DNA of 64,000 nucleotides, from NCBI GenBank assembly GCA_031555325.1, contig JAVBUM010000031.1, forward strand, positions 743-64,742, in the 5' to 3' direction. The notes beneath the pieces are model-generated. The model did not search any database. It was not told the origin of the DNA and worked only from the letters and a program-made list of their open reading frames with translations. A program made the translations under genes and the position numbers. The first letter of the stretch is position 1; the number at the start of each line of letters is the position of its first letter. Of this stretch, positions 35,906 through 39,995 are shown in pieces. This DNA is from Niveibacterium sp. (GTDB taxonomy: Bacteria; Pseudomonadota; Gammaproteobacteria; Burkholderiales; Rhodocyclaceae).

Positions 35906-36775
35906 ATGTCCGTGCTGGAGGAGGCCGTCGAAAGCGCACTGCGAGGCGTGCTTGGCACCGATTTCCGGCTTGCCGGCGACGCACTGGCCGGCAAGATCGA
36001 AGGAACACGTGGAGAGCGGTTCTTCCTAAAGTTGCGCCCTGCGGCAGAAGCCGATCGGCTTTCGGCTGAGGTGGATGGACTACGAGCCTTGGCCGAGAGC
36101 GAAACCTTCAAGGTGCCCACTATCATCGTACAAGGCGAAGTCGGTGAAACGGCTTTTCTCGCCACGGAGCATCTCGACCTGAAGCCCCTGTCCCATGCAA
36201 ATGGCGCCCATGCAGGAGAAGCACTCGCTACGCTCCACGCACCAAGGTCTGGAAGCTACGGTTGGCGGCGGGATAACTACATCGGAGCCACGCTTCAACA
36301 CAACGCCCAAAGCGAATCGTGGCCAATCTTCTTTGCTTCCCAACGATTGCGCCCGCAACTCGCGCTGGCGGCTAGCAAGGGCTACCGGGGTGCACTGCAA
36401 CAACATGGCGAGCATATCTGCGAAAAAATCGCAGCCTTCTTTCTTGAATACCGGCCCGCCCCCGCCCTGCTCCACGGCGATCTGTGGAACGGAAACATCG
36501 GTGAATTACCAGACGGGGCTCCAGCGCTTTTCGACCCTGCCGTCTGTATCGGTGACCGCGAGACGGATGTGGCGATGACCGAGCTGTTCGGTGGTTTTCC
36601 CGAAAGTTTCTATGCGACATATCGCCGTGCCCGCCCGCTCGACTTCGGCTACGAACAGCGTAAGCAGTTGTACAACCTCTACCATATGCTCAATCACCTG
36701 AATCTCTTCGGCCGCAGCTATTTACGGCAGGTGGAGTGGATGGCAACCAAGCTGTTCGACGAATTGCGCCACTAA
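35906..36775 (+). CDS. Fructosamine-kinase-family protein
   Basis: FFLK, DNYIGATLQ, LHGDLWNGN, DPAV, ELFGGF, YNLYHMLNH. Confidence 0.92.
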   Translation: MSVLEEAVESALRGVLGTDFRLAGDALAGKIEGTRGERFFLKLRPAAEADRLSAEVDGLRALAESETFKVPTIIVQGEVGETAFLATEHLDLKPLSHANGAHAGEALATLHAPRSGSYGWRRDNYIGATLQHNAQSESWPIFFASQRLRPQLALAASKGYRGALQQHGEHICEKIAAFFLEYRPAPALLHGDLWNGNIGELPDGAPALFDPAVCIGDRETDVAMTELFGGFPESFYATYRRARPLDFGYEQRKQLYNLYHMLNHLNLFGRSYLRQVEWMATKLFDELRH

Positions 36776-36996
36776 GCCCGGCACACCTCCGTCGATATTT
36801 TTGACATTTCTGGCGGCGCTCACTTATCTGCCTGGAGAGGTTTCCCGTAGGATCTTGATTAAAAAGGCAGTTTTAAAAAGAGCGCAAAGCGCACGATTTT
36901 TGCTTTTAGACTCTTGACCGGTTCTGCAAATTCCGCTCTTGTGACGTAGTTGGGTGTCTTCAGAGCGACAGCTTGTCCACAATGGCAGGACCACGA

Positions 36997-37671
36997 ATGG
37001 AAATCAGCACCATGCGAGATCAAGCCCCGAATCCGAATACTCTTCTCGACGACCAAAGCGAAACAGCGGGGCGGGACGTTCAGTCCTCAGCGCGCCGACG
37101 CTGGATCCTTCGCAGCGGCATCACGGTTGCACCCGTCATATTGACGCTGGCGAGTCGACCCGTACTGGGCAATGGGCTGGGACCCAACGGCTGTATATCG
37201 CCGTCGGCAACGCTCTCGGGCGCCTTGAGCCAAGCCACGAACCAAGTCGGTACCTGTAGCGGGGACGGTTATAGCGCTTGGAAGAGTCTGGCGACGGCAC
37301 CCATACCGCCGGATTGGGCATCGACTGAGTTTCACCCGCTTTTCTCAAGCGATGGGGGCGTTGGCAGAAAGTTCTATAGCGCTAATGTGCCCCTTAAGTT
37401 TGGCGAAATTCTCCAGCTCAACGGTACGATGGCCGGTCAGGATGCGGCGGGGAATTTCGATCAGGACTTGGTCGCAGGCCATATGATTGCGGCGTATCTG
37501 AATCTGACCCAGAAGCCTAGCTCCATATCGGACAAGGCAATGACTGTTGTCCGGCTGCTGAAGCTCTGGCGCGAATGGGCACTCACGGGGCAGTACCTTC
37601 CATACGCTGGCGCAACACCGTGGAACGGTGCGGCAATCGTAGATTACCTGACGCGCAGCCACCTCGCCTGA
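36997..37671 (+). CDS. Hypothetical protein with twin-arginine/hydrophobic leader and Cys/Ser-rich motif; candidate substrate of downstream enzymes
   Basis: SARRRWILRSGITVAPVILTLASRPVLG followed by CISPSATLSGALS; 7-bp gap to the PqqD gene; start uncertain (36997 or 37012). Confidence 0.8.
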   Translation: MEISTMRDQAPNPNTLLDDQSETAGRDVQSSARRRWILRSGITVAPVILTLASRPVLGNGLGPNGCISPSATLSGALSQATNQVGTCSGDGYSAWKSLATAPIPPDWASTEFHPLFSSDGGVGRKFYSANVPLKFGEILQLNGTMAGQDAAGNFDQDLVAGHMIAAYLNLTQKPSSISDKAMTVVRLLKLWREWALTGQYLPYAGATPWNGAAIVDYLTRSHLA

Positions 37672-37678
37672 GCATACC

Positions 37679-37939
37679 GTGCCGCGCGAACATGCCTCGC
37701 GTTGGCTAATGCGCGAGTGGGATGACGGCGCGGTCGTTTATGACCGCAAAACCGGGGACACCCACGCAATCGATCCGTTTGCGGTTGAATTCCTTTGCCT
37801 GCCCGAATCGGCACGATACGATCCGGCGCAGGCGTCAGCGCTGCTCCAGAAAAGCTTCGGCGGCGAAATTGACGCAGAAGCCCTGCGTCGTGGAATCGAC
37901 GCAGCAATCAAACAACTCCGCCGCATCGAATTGCTTTGA
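37679..37939 (+). CDS. Stand-alone PqqD/RRE-family protein (HPr-rel-A system type)
   Basis: 86 aa, GTG start; beta-strand segment WDDGAVVYDRKTGDTHAID then helices ending QLRRIELL; precedes HprK-like kinase. Confidence 0.8.
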   Translation: MPREHASRWLMREWDDGAVVYDRKTGDTHAIDPFAVEFLCLPESARYDPAQASALLQKSFGGEIDAEALRRGIDAAIKQLRRIELL

Positions 37940-38862
37940 CCCAGACCATGCGCGTCGGCGATCTATCGCGCGACGAACTGCGAAGCCGGCTCCACGGCAC
38001 GGGCCTATACTTGCGCTCGGGTCCGCTCGTATTCGACATTCACAGCCGCGAACCCGAAATCAGCAACAATCTGTCGCTGCTTTACGCGGATAGCTTGCTC
38101 GCGACAGGTGACTTCGCCGATTTCCATGTGGAGGTTCGGCGCGTCCGCGGGCTCCGTGGCAGGCTGAAGCCACAGATCGAATTCGTCATCGACGAACGTG
38201 GCCCATTCCAACCCCTACCACGCCCGCAATCCTTTGCGATGCTTGAATGGGGCATGAACTGGTGCGTTGCCACACAGTGCCACCAGTTTCTGGTCATCCA
38301 CGCTGCAGTGGTGGAGCGCAACGGATTTGCCGCAATCCTCCCTGCTCCACCCGGCTCTGGCAAGAGCACGCTTTGTGCGGCGTTGATCCACGCAGGCTGG
38401 CGCTTGTGTTCAGACGAACTGACACTGCTCGACCCGGACGATGGCATGGTCGTCGCGCTGGCCCGACCCGTGAGCCTCAAGAATGCCTCAATCGAAGTCA
38501 TCCGCGATTTCGCCCCACAGGCGATTTTCGGAGAGGAAATACCCGACACCAAGAAGGGGCGCATATCGCACCTTAAACCGCCGCGGGCGAGCATCGAGAA
38601 TGTTGCACTCCGAGCCCGTCCGCGCTGGATTGTATTTCCACAATGGGAGGCGGGCGCATCGCTGTCTCTTTTCAGCCAGCCGAAATCTCATGGATTCATC
38701 CAGCTCGCTGAAAACGCATTCAACTACAGCATGCTCGGCGAAACTGGCTTCGACCTACTCGGCCGAGTGATTAACGACAGCGAATGCCTGGGGTTGCGCT
38801 ACAGCCGACTCGATGACGCCATCGCTTGGTTCGAACGGGTCGCTGATGAGGCCAACCGATGA
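37936..38862 (+). CDS. HprK-related kinase (kinase A type)
   Basis: VIHAAVVE, Walker A APPGSGKST, GWRLCSDEL, RPVSLKN; 4-bp overlaps with both neighbours. Confidence 0.88.
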   Translation: MTQTMRVGDLSRDELRSRLHGTGLYLRSGPLVFDIHSREPEISNNLSLLYADSLLATGDFADFHVEVRRVRGLRGRLKPQIEFVIDERGPFQPLPRPQSFAMLEWGMNWCVATQCHQFLVIHAAVVERNGFAAILPAPPGSGKSTLCAALIHAGWRLCSDELTLLDPDDGMVVALARPVSLKNASIEVIRDFAPQAIFGEEIPDTKKGRISHLKPPRASIENVALRARPRWIVFPQWEAGASLSLFSQPKSHGFIQLAENAFNYSMLGETGFDLLGRVINDSECLGLRYSRLDDAIAWFERVADEANR

Positions 38863-39995
38863 TCCGCGACGCAGTACTCCCCATCATTCGCGATCCGGCC
38901 TCCGCACTTGGCCTCGGCATGCAAGGCTGGGACAACCTGTTGCGTGAGGCGTGGATCGCCAATCTTAGTGCGCGAATTGCGGAGGACCTTGCACACCTTG
39001 GACCGCCTGATCTGGTACCACCTCCGGTCCGCCCACACCTCTTGAGCGCGCGGCGGATCGCACAACGTCAACGGATCGCCACGCTCGCCGAAATCGAGCG
39101 CGTGCGGACTGCACTCGCCGATGGCGGAATCCGCCTCGTTCTGCTCAAAGGTGCGGCTTATCTTGCGGCCGACCTACCCAACGCCCTGGGACGCGTGTTC
39201 GGCGATATCGATCTGCTCGTCCCGCGAGCGTTGCTCATCGAAACCGAAGCAATGGCGCTCAAGCATGGCTGGATCGGCACCCATCATGATGCGTACGATC
39301 AGCGCTACTACCGCCAATGGATGCACGAATTGCCCCCGCTGCACCATGTAGTGCGGGAATCAACGCTCGACGTGCATCACAACATCCTGCCTGCTACAGC
39401 GAGGCGTCCGCCTGATGCAGCGCTGCTCCTGGCCGATGCAGTCGAGACCACGATTCCAGGGATCTTCGTCCTGGCTCCGCCGGACATGGTGCTCCACAGT
39501 GCCTGTCACTTGTTCCACGAGGGCGAACTGGACAATGGATTACGGGATCTCGTCGATCTGGATGGTCTGCTGCGCCATTTCGGCGGTACGCCGGATTTTT
39601 GGGATCGCCTCGAAACACGAGCTGGCGCCCTGCACCTCGAACGCCCGCTACGCTATGCGCTTCGGATGTGCGAACTGATGCTGGGGACACCATTCCCACG
39701 CCCACTGCTTGATAACCATGCACCTTGGCCCGCCGATTTCCGCGAGCGCATGCTGGAGCAGCTCTACCTGCGCGGACTCCGCCCCAACCACCCGTTGGCC
39801 GGCGACCGCTGGACACCACTCGCCCGCTGGTTGTTGTATGTACGCGGCCACTGGCTGCGCATGCCGCCTCACTTGCTCGCTGCTCATCTCTCCCGCAAGG
39901 CATGGCTACGTTGGACAGGTTTTGAATTCGGCTCGGACCACCGCGAAGAAGCCGAGATCCTGAAAGCAAAACCCCGGTCTGAAGACCGGGGTTAA
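38859..39995 (+). CDS. Nucleotidyltransferase family protein (NTP_transf_5-like)
   Basis: LLKGAAYL, RVFGDIDLLV (DxD), DVHHNI, HSACHLF, LRDLVDL. Confidence 0.87.
   Translation: MIRDAVLPIIRDPASALGLGMQGWDNLLREAWIANLSARIAEDLAHLGPPDLVPPPVRPHLLSARRIAQRQRIATLAEIERVRTALADGGIRLVLLKGAAYLAADLPNALGRVFGDIDLLVPRALLIETEAMALKHGWIGTHHDAYDQRYYRQWMHELPPLHHVVRESTLDVHHNILPATARRPPDAALLLADAVETTIPGIFVLAPPDMVLHSACHLFHEGELDNGLRDLVDLDGLLRHFGGTPDFWDRLETRAGALHLERPLRYALRMCELMLGTPFPRPLLDNHAPWPADFRERMLEQLYLRGLRPNHPLAGDRWTPLARWLLYVRGHWLRMPPHLLAAHLSRKAWLRWTGFEFGSDHREEAEILKAKPRSEDRG
39970..39993 (-). terminator. Probable grxD terminator lying inside the last codons of the convergent nucleotidyltransferase gene
   Basis: AACCCCGGTC-TGAA-GACCGGGGTT perfect stem; T run follows on the minus strand. 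Confidence 0.65.

Follow-up and report, generated by a model that had tools for sequence, protein, structure and literature searches.

A conserved Tat-type leader and Ser loop linked to a PqqD/HprK-like kinase/nucleotidyltransferase cassette: a candidate substrate for the HPr-rel-A system

The described systems closest to the locus presented here are the tailoring branches of lasso peptide biosynthesis and the bufferins. HprK-family kinases phosphorylate a Ser of linear lasso precursors, and PsmN is required for the hexose found on the phosphorylated pseudomycoidin peptide (PMC8498205, PMC6993621). Bufferins (DUF2282, BUF_6/12Cys) are small proteins that are modified in the cytoplasm by an MNIO enzyme with a DUF2063 RRE-type partner. 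They carry a general-secretion signal peptide in place of a classical leader, are cut by signal peptidase and reside in the periplasm with disulfide bonding (PMC11626156). Although the bufferin signal peptide stands beside an RRE-type partner, it is dispensable for the modification, a conversion of Cys to thiooxazole (PMC11626156).

A further cassette, consisting of a PqqD protein, an HprK-like kinase and a PF14907 protein, is catalogued in NCBIfam as the “HPr-rel-A system” without a substrate or function. In the literature we found no paper naming its TIGR04352 and TIGR04353 families and no published description of the system, and two surveys of RREs are silent on kinases. Recognition of a signal peptide by a dedicated protein is familiar from the Tat proofreading chaperones TorD, DmsD and NapD, where a small cytoplasmic protein, encoded in one operon with its single substrate, binds that substrate's twin-arginine signal and retains it until maturation. 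These chaperones have other folds than PqqD and oversee cofactor insertion, not covalent side-chain modification. We know of no PqqD/RRE-fold protein that serves as a Tat proofreading chaperone.

The window, i.e., the whole 64,000-nt stretch of DNA that was analysed, contains a locus that belongs to the HPr-rel-A system: adjacent genes exceed the cut-offs of TIGR04352 and TIGR04353, and PF14907, the usual neighbour, is encoded beside them. All genes and motifs below lie on the forward strand. An ORF of 224 codons (36997–37671, stop codon 37669–37671), the candidate substrate gene, is the first in a four-gene operon. After a gap of 7 bp it is followed by the gene for a PqqD-family RRE, annotated as a peptide chaperone (86 aa, 37679–37939; TIGR04353 43.7 bits, cut-off 35). 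Next is the gene for HprK-related kinase A (308 aa, 37936–38862; TIGR04352 E 1.6e-110, 368.7 bits, cut-off 200), in which the P-loop GSGKST (38353–38370) is intact, and last a PF14907 (NTP_transf_5) nucleotidyltransferase gene (378 aa, 38859–39995; Pfam E 1.1e-54), where the motif G-D-I-D-L-L (39201–39218) retains an intact G-D-x-D. Overlaps of 4 bp join the PqqD gene to the kinase gene and the kinase gene to the nucleotidyltransferase gene. These four genes, and no more, lie between a fructosamine kinase gene and grx4, flanks that are of a housekeeping nature, and searches with Pfam and NCBIfam found no protease, exporter, lyase or cyclase homologue in the block.

The earlier note had treated the downstream PqqD protein as an RRE, and its TIGR04353 score and modelled fold confirm this assignment. 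The model (pLDDT 90.3) is rich in strands in its N-terminal half and continues with helices, and its best folds in the PDB are those of the lasso leader-binding proteins TbiB1 (5v1u/5v1v, TM 0.67) and TfuB1 (6jx3), together with the CteB and SuiB RREs. At the sequence level, neither the PqqD protein nor the kinase found anything meaningful in the PDB. The Pfam model Hpr_kinase_C matched the kinase weakly over the P-loop region (E 0.27).

The combination of a PqqD-like RRE, an HprK-family Ser kinase and a nucleotidyltransferase-fold enzyme is shared with lasso tailoring, as seen in PadeK of paeninodin, in PsmK/PsmN of pseudomycoidin and in the B1 proteins TbiB1/TfuB1. The differences are nevertheless considerable. 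Lasso precursors are ∼40 aa long, whereas the candidate substrate, at 224 aa, combines a Tat-type signal with a folded domain; the Ser modified by the known lasso kinases is C-terminal, whereas the candidate acceptors here are internal and sit in a Cys-bracketed loop. The kinase here is a TIGR04352 member with its weak Hpr_kinase_C match, and the likeness of the nucleotidyltransferase to PsmN is drawn at the level of enzyme type. The cassette also lacks the lasso cyclase, the B2 peptidase and an ABC exporter. We therefore rejected a lasso peptide cluster, there being no Asn-synthetase-like cyclase (C) and no transglutaminase-like peptidase (B2) among the four genes. Classical RiPPs pair a short precursor with a pathway protease, and here the precursor would be 224 aa long, with no protease or exporter in the block. 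As expected of an RRE-dependent precursor, on the other hand, an RRE-fold protein is encoded next to the ORF and the conserved N-terminal sequence is linked to the enzymes.

For the candidate substrate we follow the database gene call, which begins at ATG 36997, 7 nt downstream of an AGGA; other possible starts are TTG 36973, ATG 36982 and ATG 37012. Residue numbers refer to the 224-residue form from ATG 36997 (add 8 for the form starting at TTG 36973). The protein had no Pfam or NCBIfam match even at E ≤ 10, and its family comprises 7582 representative clusters at E ≤ 1e-3. We assessed conservation in an alignment of 27 proteins that are 19–54% identical to the protein of the window, and in a wider set of 142 family representatives with a mutual identity of at most 50%. 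In the 27-protein alignment the second Arg of the RR pair, C66, S74, C87 and N169 are invariant, and at least 90% of the sequences share R33, S70, G89 and W95. The mean pairwise identity is 0.43 in the leader and 0.41 in the Ser core (0.55 from C66 to S78), compared to 0.27 in the domain and 0.17 in the n-region. The RR motif, hydrophobic stretch, Ser segment and Cys residues were all found at the positions reported for them earlier, and this anatomy exceeds chance by far, since the family retains the pattern.

Our best explanation is that the ORF at 36997–37671 encodes a dedicated substrate of the PqqD/HprK-related kinase A/PF14907 cassette, which would be modified and then exported, and that the protein is built from three modules: a Tat-type signal peptide, a Cys-closed Ser loop and a helical extracytoplasmic domain. 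Taken as a whole, we consider this explanation about equally balanced between being right and being wrong.

The link between the substrate family and the cassette was found to be tight. Distant homologues (33–45% identity) share the gene order substrate–PqqD–kinase–nucleotidyltransferase, also when the surrounding genes are arranged differently, Thiobacillus being one example. A PqqD homologue lies between the substrate and kinase genes in all 30 loci examined. Of 30 HprK_rel_A loci drawn from across the class, at least 24 have a substrate homologue immediately upstream of PqqD, and the other four in which the upstream sequence could be read have a different protein in this place that carries a similar RR...TL.S leader. 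In a sample of 400 genomes, 31 had the cassette and 369 did not. All 22 full-length copies of the substrate belonged to genomes with the cassette (Fisher p 2e-29); 21 of them adjoin the cassette, directly upstream of it. Seven domain-only relatives were detected in the same sample, none with the leader or the loop, six of them in cassette-free genomes. Thus, the leader and the loop co-occur strictly with the cassette and the C-terminal domain does not. A link of this kind between the Tat-leader family and the cassette is not catalogued in NCBIfam, whose library has no substrate model. The operon does not appear to be a recent horizontal acquisition, a possibility that we rejected because the GC content is flat across the block and the hemA-prfA-prmC-grx4 synteny is kept in relatives. 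A hidden small precursor ORF is unlikely, given the 7-bp gap before PqqD and a Tat-leader protein as the upstream gene in every locus.

Could the protein instead be an ordinary exported protein that shares the operon, with the enzymes acting on a small molecule, a polysaccharide or another protein, and with the leader and loop kept for structure or targeting? Exosortase/PEP-CTERM is found in 28 of the 31 cassette-positive genomes as opposed to 77 of the 369 others, and polysaccharide chemistry is common in such genomes. PF14907 is moreover a family without a defined activity, and the authors of the pseudomycoidin study left it possible that PsmN merely makes a substrate for host glycosyltransferases (PMC6993621). 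These points have to be set against the co-occurrence data, in which leader and loop, not the domain, track the cassette, against the loci where a different protein in the same position bears a similar leader, and against the nature of PqqD, a peptide-binding module with its nearest structural matches among the leader-binding B1 proteins. In secreted proteins it is usually the signal peptide that diverges most, yet in this family the leader is conserved best. We consider it unlikely, therefore, that the protein is a bystander. The same property sets the protein apart from bufferins, whose signal peptides are not specially conserved.

The leader contains the twin-arginine motif S-A-R-R-R-W-I-L-R (37087–37113, Arg codons 37093–37101), which compares with the Tat motif type [ST]-R-R-x-F-L-K and its invariant Arg pair near the N-terminus. 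It is followed by SGITVAPVILTLASRPVLG (37114–37170), which comprises an h-region of 14 uncharged residues, SGITVAPVILTLAS, and the c-region R-P-V-L-G, and which is our candidate RRE docking segment. A signal peptidase I site is predicted after G58, between 37170 and 37171. Among the 142 representatives, Arg is retained at the two positions of the pair in 137 and 141; next come [LF] and, in most cases, K or R. Near-invariance also marks the c-region S-[RK]-P-[VA]-x-[GA], with R or K as its basic residue in 128, V or A at –3 in 133 and G or A at –1 in all 142. The family leader signature reads P-V-[IL]-[LM]-T-[LV]-x-S-[RK]-P-[VA]-x-[GA]. An HMM of the leader scored 40.8 bits on the substrate protein and at most 12.2 bits on any other protein of the genome, and some 20 generic Tat-like signals in the same genome all lack the signature. 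We conclude from these sequence comparisons that the leader is specific to the system and not a generic Tat signal.

An RRE docking strand had been proposed for the P-x-I-x-x-L segment of the leader. Its conservation proved to be moderate, with Pro in 103 of 142 representatives, and the stronger signature is T-[LV]-x-S-[RK]-P. Compared to the lasso leader motif Y-x-x-P-x-L, P46-x-[ILV]48 matches, but the Tyr is missing: three residues ahead of the Pro the family has A, G, T or V, and in no case Tyr. At –2, where lasso leaders have Thr, the residue is L, W, M or F. Six leaders of the second class, that of the different upstream protein, were read by eye; with the leader HMM three of them gave 29.6, 17.9 and 13.4 bits and the other three no match. 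The PqqD β3 motif, T-G-D-T-H-A-I-D (37751–37774) in the window, co-varies with leader class; this is suggestive of leader binding, although it is confounded by phylogeny.

Two other readings of the leader deserve attention. The first holds that the acceptors are T50 and S53 inside the signal peptide, and that their phosphorylation reversibly blocks export as a regulatory gate. Of the 142 representatives, 131 have T or S at position 50 and 117 have S at position 53, which is unusually high for a Tat h-region, and T-L-x-S is common to the second leader class as well. Negative charge in an h-region is expected to prevent translocation. The Ser of the core loop are stricter still, though (142, 141 and 134 of 142), known RRE systems bind the leader and do not modify it, and the gate would leave no role for the nucleotidyltransferase or the Cys-bracketed loop. 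We find it improbable that the leader is itself the target.

The second reading takes the N-terminal segment for something other than a Tat signal, be it a Sec signal, a membrane anchor or a purely cytoplasmic RiPP leader resembling a Tat signal, with the RR pair as a possible contact for the RRE or the kinase. When 27 family members were scanned against NCBIfam at E ≤ 10, the Tat HMM TIGR01409 had no match, a search in which the HMMER filters drop weak short matches. The bufferins, as the nearest case of a signal peptide with an RRE partner, use Sec and not Tat (PMC11626156). The composition of the leader nevertheless argues for Tat. Its Arg pair is nearly invariant, although a Sec signal could have Lys there; Ala, Gly, Thr and Pro abound in the h-region, which has little hydrophobicity; the basic c-region residue disfavours Sec; and all representatives follow the –3/–1 rule. 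The genome encodes tatC (221.2 bits, above cut-off), and the C-terminal domain occurs also in long multidomain proteins, two of them with the DUF domains described below. As all the sequence hallmarks of a Tat signal are present, the suggestion of the earlier note that this may be one is supported at the sequence level, and a different kind of N-terminal segment seems unlikely to us.

We now return to the dedicated-substrate explanation and to the loop in which its modification sites would lie. The Ser-rich core loop C66-I-S-P-S70-A-T-L-S74-G-A-L-S78 ... C87-S-G89 (37192–37263) begins after NGLGPNG with the Cys codon 37192–37194. The segment ISPSATLSGALS contains four Ser and one Thr and ends at 37230, and the second Cys follows within GTCSG (codon 37255–37257). 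C66 and C87 are the sole Cys of the entire protein and bracket a loop of ∼22 residues just past the predicted signal peptidase site. The loop is near-invariant in the family, with the motif C-[TS]-x-S-x3-S-G-N-x-S; in order along it, Cys, Ser, Ser, Ser and Cys are retained in 141, 142, 141, 134 and 140 of the 142 representatives. It is missing from the domain-only relatives. Conservation of the Ser motif against a varying remainder had been named earlier as a check, and in both alignments the core Ser and both Cys are indeed kept while the rest of the protein varies. The precise pattern put forward, C-x-S-x-S-x-x-x-SG-x-x-S, needs correction: its core Ser are general, whereas the first Ser is not, being T or S and one residue nearer the Cys in most sequences. 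We regard the serines of the loop, judged by their conservation, as candidate modification sites, and the C66/C87 pair probably closes the loop by a disulfide.

A bacterial lipoprotein was rejected. In a lipobox, L-[AS]-[GA]-C, the Cys is at +1 of the cleavage site, while here it lies 8 residues past G58, and in the family this distance is variable and the Cys never at +1 in the sequences inspected.

Since two invariant Cys flank invariant Ser, since class III/IV lanthipeptide synthetases are known to phosphorylate and then eliminate, and since AlphaFold2 places strand elements, at low to moderate confidence, beside both Cys (one residue at 65, two at 86–87) that could be a β-bridge between them, Ser activated by phosphorylation or nucleotidylation might be eliminated to dehydroalanine and attacked by the Cys to give lanthionine-like thioether rings, i.e., a cross-linked loop and not a phosphoprotein, but we judge this highly improbable in a four-gene cassette with no lyase or cyclase homologue and with housekeeping flanks, where a periplasmic disulfide accounts more economically for the Cys pair.

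Under the dedicated-substrate explanation, the PqqD/RRE protein would bind the signal peptide in the cytoplasm as a RiPP-style leader, and the bound leader would present the adjoining Ser loop to the kinase. The kinase may then phosphorylate one or more of S70, S74 and S78; the acceptor residue is assumed, because the kinase resembles HprK only remotely (see the Hpr_kinase_C match above). By analogy with PsmK/PsmN of pseudomycoidin, the nucleotidyltransferase may extend the phosphate with a sugar or a nucleotide. The modified, folded protein would leave by Tat, and the signal would be cut after V-L-G. We infer the binding of the leader by the RRE, the Ser acceptors, the chemistry, the Tat dependence and the coupling of modification to export. 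For the last of these we suspect that the Tat signal doubles as a RiPP-type leader and that PqqD retains the protein until the Ser loop is decorated and then releases it to Tat, a proposal that we put at somewhat less than an even chance. In being dedicated to one Tat substrate, PqqD would by analogy resemble TorD, DmsD and NapD. Points against the explanation as a whole include the missing TIGR01409 match, the remoteness of the kinase from HprK, the dispensable signal peptide of bufferins, the C-terminal Ser targets of lasso kinases as opposed to the internal candidate acceptors, and the second-class leaders, which resemble the leader of the substrate only modestly.

As the cassette has so far been catalogued without a substrate, a leader-bearing substrate family makes the system testable. 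If the Tat signal is indeed a leader read by an RRE, RiPP-style recognition would reach full-size exported proteins, PqqD would be a new kind of Tat quality-control chaperone, and two fields that have been separate, RiPP recognition and Tat proofreading, would be joined. The thousands of family clusters would then represent a large unrecognised class of decorated exported proteins. The link with exosortase-bearing genomes suggests a role at the cell surface or in the biofilm matrix.

The rest of the protein (37264–37668) is predicted to be a helical C-terminal domain, to which no function is assigned. The AlphaFold2 model is confident over residues ∼85–224, corresponding to a folded domain of ∼135 residues. 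A Foldseek search of the substrate model against the PDB gave zero matches at E ≤ 0.001, and no Pfam model covers the domain. Long proteins contain it too, sometimes in repeats, without leader or loop; in two of these proteins it is accompanied by DUF4215 or DUF11/DUF7507, which we read as surface-type domains. Because the family is large and lacks a Pfam model or a PDB neighbour, the domain merits a family definition of its own.

The operon is transcribed, as seen by a single metatranscriptome contig of 3523 nt that covers 36077–39599. Its depth is 41.8 relative to ∼6 in the flanks, but contig depth reflects expression poorly and may in part stem from DNA carry-over. A scan for σ70 promoters upstream of the substrate ORF found nothing. 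A degenerate σ54-like –24/–12 element, GCGCACGATTTTTGCT, lies at 36888–36903 with CG where the consensus has GG, and its link to the system is uncertain. The same degenerate variant is found upstream of the Niveibacterium homologue, and intact GG-N10-GC elements with a score of at least 10 of 12 precede the homologous gene in 10 of 23 loci; within the gene the count is 1 of 23, and on the antisense strand 0 of 23. At the opposite end of the block, where it converges with grx4, a GC-rich hairpin is found at 39970–39993.

Translation of 36973–37671 reproduced exactly the description that the earlier note had given of the first ORF of the block, with every feature in its place. On the forward strand, a twin-arginine motif, S-A-R-R-R-W-I-L-R (37087–37113; Arg codons 37093–37101), is followed by the uncharged stretch SGITVAPVILTLASRPVLG (37114–37170), by NGLGPNG and a first Cys at 37192 (C66), by the Ser-rich segment ISPSATLSGALS, which holds four Ser and one Thr and ends at 37230, and by a second Cys within GTCSG (C87, 37255–37257). 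The whole protein has no Cys beyond these two. The database gene call (P0005) starts at ATG 36997, the origin of the residue numbering used here, with AGGA 7 nt upstream, and yields 224 aa that no Pfam or NCBIfam model matches.

This candidate substrate gene is the first of four co-oriented genes, spaced by a 7-bp gap and then twice by a 4-bp overlap; GC content is uniform over the block. The partners are a PqqD-family protein (37679–37939; TIGR04353, 43.7 bits, cut-off 35), an HprK-related kinase A (37936–38862; TIGR04352, 368.7 bits, cut-off 200) and a nucleotidyltransferase (38859–39995; PF14907, E 1.1e-54), and the locus belongs to the HPr-rel-A system of NCBIfam. The kinase P-loop GSGKST is intact (38353–38370) and precedes R-L-C-S-D-E, the match to Pfam Hpr_kinase_C being weak (E 0.27). 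The G-D-I-D-L-L motif of the nucleotidyltransferase is also intact (39201–39218). The structure model of the PqqD protein (pLDDT 90.3) found its closest PDB folds in the lasso leader-binding proteins TbiB1 (5v1u/5v1v, TM 0.67, probability 1.00) and TfuB1 (6jx3), followed by the RRE domains of CteB, SuiB and ThcOx. Judged by this predicted fold, the PqqD protein is a genuine RRE. Housekeeping genes lie on both sides of the block, argH and fructosamine kinase upstream and grx4, prmC, prfA and hemA downstream. The cassette adjoins hemA-prfA-prmC-grx4 in several betaproteobacterial relatives (the window and loci L001 and L004, compared with the Thiobacillus locus L002), in varying relative orientation; for an accessory operon, this position is unusually constant.

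The same gene order was seen in three distant homologues (33–45% identity) from Niveibacterium, Thiobacillus and a metagenome-assembled genome. As the Thiobacillus flanks are rearranged, the block moves as a whole. In a sample of 400 genomes of the class, HprK_rel_A scored above cut-off in 31, and 30 loci were fetched. A PqqD-like ORF precedes the kinase gene in 30/30, and a member of the substrate family lies directly upstream of the PqqD gene in at least 24; the six loci without a family match comprise two that are incomplete upstream and four with a different protein at that position. In the reverse search of 400 genomes, all full-length copies (leader, loop and domain; 22/22) fell in cassette-positive genomes (Fisher p 2e-29), 21 of them within ∼1.3 kb upstream of the kinase gene; the remaining one comes from a fragmented assembly and sits on a different contig. 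A further seven matches were domain-only (profile positions ∼73–210, inside ORFs of 207–1352 aa), six of them in genomes without the cassette. Full-length copies thus track the cassette and domain-only relatives do not; therefore, the invariant Ser and both Cys form part of a leader-plus-core unit that accompanies the enzymes, and the C-terminal domain stands as a separate extracytoplasmic module. The reading with the best support makes the protein a dedicated substrate of the cassette. That the enzymes act on something else would have to accommodate this linkage, and we consider it unlikely.

A word-indexed search recovered 16 relatives of the substrate, and an exhaustive profile search 7582 representative clusters at E ≤ 1e-3 (335 at E ≤ 1e-30). 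An alignment of 27 sequences that share 19–54% identity with the window's protein has five invariant columns: the second Arg, C66, S74, C87 and N169. Mean pairwise identity is 0.17 in the n-region, 0.43 over the RR, h and c regions and 0.41 in the Ser core (0.55 for C66–S78 alone). In secreted protein families the signal peptide is normally not better conserved than the mature domain, unlike what is seen here. Among 142 representatives (≤50% mutual identity), the Arg pair is kept in 137 and 141, the conserved Thr position of the h-region has Thr in 105 and Ser in 26, and the c-region retains Ser in 117, R/K in 128, Pro in 124, V/A at −3 in 133 and G/A at −1 in all 142. Beyond the leader, 141 representatives retain the first Cys and 140 the second; the three Ser occur in 142, 141 and 134, and the Gly behind the second Cys in 135. 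The consensus reads RR[RK][LF]x[KR]xG...P[VI][LIV][LM]T[LV]AS[RK]P[VA]x[GA], then 1–10 residues, C[TS]xSGxxSGNxS, 4–8 residues and CxGx[ST]PGYW. The expectation that the Cys/Ser core and a P-x-I-x-x-L element would be conserved while the rest varied thus held for the core, near-invariant against 0.27 mean identity in the C-terminal domain, and in part for the leader element, whose Pro occurs in 103/142. Acceptors at T50 and S53, inside the leader, would make an export gate; next to the near-invariant core Ser, we find this placement quite unlikely. At 37219–37230 (S-G-A-L-S) most members read S-G-N-[LVT]-S, an N-x-S sequon with Asn in 122/142 representatives; the window's protein, like its nearest relatives, has Ala there.

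Judged by rule, the N-terminal segment has every hallmark of a Tat signal: the context [ST]-R-R-x-[FL] with an invariant Arg pair, a weakly hydrophobic h-region of 14 residues without charge, a basic c-region residue and a −3/−1 site [VA]-x-[GA]. The genome encodes TatC. The TIGR01409 Tat model did not match the family; with these hallmarks in place, a signal of another type seems rather improbable. Under a simple rule, ∼20 other proteins of the genome carry generic Tat-like signals, and the signature P-V-[IL]-[LM]-T-L-x-S-[RK]-P is found in none of them; the leader HMM scored 40.8 bits on the substrate ORF and at most 12.2 bits on anything else in its genome. On top of its Tat-like features, the leader therefore shows additional conservation that is specific to the system.

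We infer that the RRE would bind the signal peptide as a leader, that the kinase would phosphorylate at least one invariant Ser in the loop behind it, and that the PF14907 enzyme may extend the phosphate. The modified protein would exit via Tat, possibly with some gating of export, its signal being cleaved after V-L-G and its loop closed by the two Cys. The proposed chemistry is borrowed from lasso-peptide tailoring, where HprK-family kinases (poly)phosphorylate the C-terminal Ser of the precursor and PsmN, with catalytic D134/D136, is required for hexose on the phosphorylated peptide (PMC8498205, PMC6993621). A thioether product, in which activated Ser would become cross-linked to the two Cys, is very improbable. 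Small proteins with a general-secretion signal can serve as RiPP-like substrates, as bufferins demonstrate; modification there can also proceed without the signal peptide (PMC11626156), the strongest reason for caution about a signal peptide doubling as RRE leader. The locus is not a classical RiPP, since the block encodes no protease and its candidate substrate measures 224 aa; a lasso cluster was rejected, the block having neither cyclase nor B2 peptidase. We found no paper naming these families or a Tat-leader substrate for them in a search largely confined to openly accessible journals, so that this absence is not proof. We rate the locus as a candidate for RRE-guided kinase and transferase tailoring, a known kind, here applied to a putatively Tat-exported protein.

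In the four no-match loci and two weakly scoring ones, the position upstream of PqqD holds a different protein with a similar leader, e.g., SRRQFLKGTSLALPAVMTLHSGTAQA. These proteins form a putative second class of substrates. Three of their leaders scored modestly with the leader HMM (29.6, 17.9 and 13.4 bits) and the remainder did not match. Leader peptides in solved RRE complexes pair with the beta3 strand. In PqqD this strand reads SGDTH..D in most loci of the first class, as against SG[QE]TH[FI]LN in 6/6 of the second, a pairing that would fit leader recognition, though it is confounded by phylogeny. The second-class leader takes the form RR.[FL]LKG...PA[IV].TLHSG.A.A followed by a Cys, and the mature parts (L016, L024, L025, L027, L033 and L035) are unrelated.

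The structure model of the substrate is confident, and helical, only from about residue 85 on, and a PDB structure search with it returned no neighbour. The C-terminal domain (37264–37668) represents a large family that no Pfam model covers. Long multidomain representatives (P0021, P0054, P0102, P0105 and P0137 among them) repeat it in tandem up to six times without RR, leader or Ser loop, and two also carry DUF4215 or DUF11/DUF7507. There the domain begins EGC[TS]PG[YF]WK, with the Cys at family position 90, not C87. This Cys (G-C-T-P-G-Y-W-K) seems to go together with a C-terminal C-P-L motif, which points to a disulfide within the domain; both are absent from the window's protein.

The presence of the cassette goes strongly with that of exosortases, which occur in 28/31 cassette-bearing and 77/369 other genomes of the 400-genome sample (Fisher p 6e-15). 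The window's genome (G000) carries two exosortases and the PEP-CTERM-box response regulator PrsR (732.9 bits), the genes lying at C78:14092–15420, C54:26885–27595 and C53:29465–30184. The Thiobacillus cassette (L002) has as neighbours a sigma-54 activator and a histidine kinase, as well as a weak match to a PEP-CTERM domain.

One invertebrate gut metatranscriptome contains 96% of the words sampled. A single 3523-nt contig covers 36077–39599 at a depth of 41.8 against ∼6 in the flanks, which fits a co-transcribed, expressed operon, subject to the caveats of contig depth and DNA carry-over. The contig begins inside the upstream fructosamine kinase gene and differs from the window at two bases of the kinase gene, A>G at 38042 and C>G at 38118, probably strain variation. 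Sigma-54-type −24/−12 elements (GG-N10-GC, agreeing with TGGCACG-N4-TTGCW at 10 or more of 12 positions) occur 58–159 nt upstream of the substrate gene in 10/23 loci (L002, L007, L008, L010, L012, L019, L020, L023, L026 and L034), compared with 1/23 inside the gene and 0/23 antisense. The window has a degenerate element at 36888–36903, with CG for GG, and the same variant occurs in Niveibacterium (L001). A 10-bp GC-rich hairpin, AACCCCGGTC...GACCGGGGTT (39970–39993), overlaps the last nucleotidyltransferase codons, faces the convergent grx4 and could be a bidirectional terminator.
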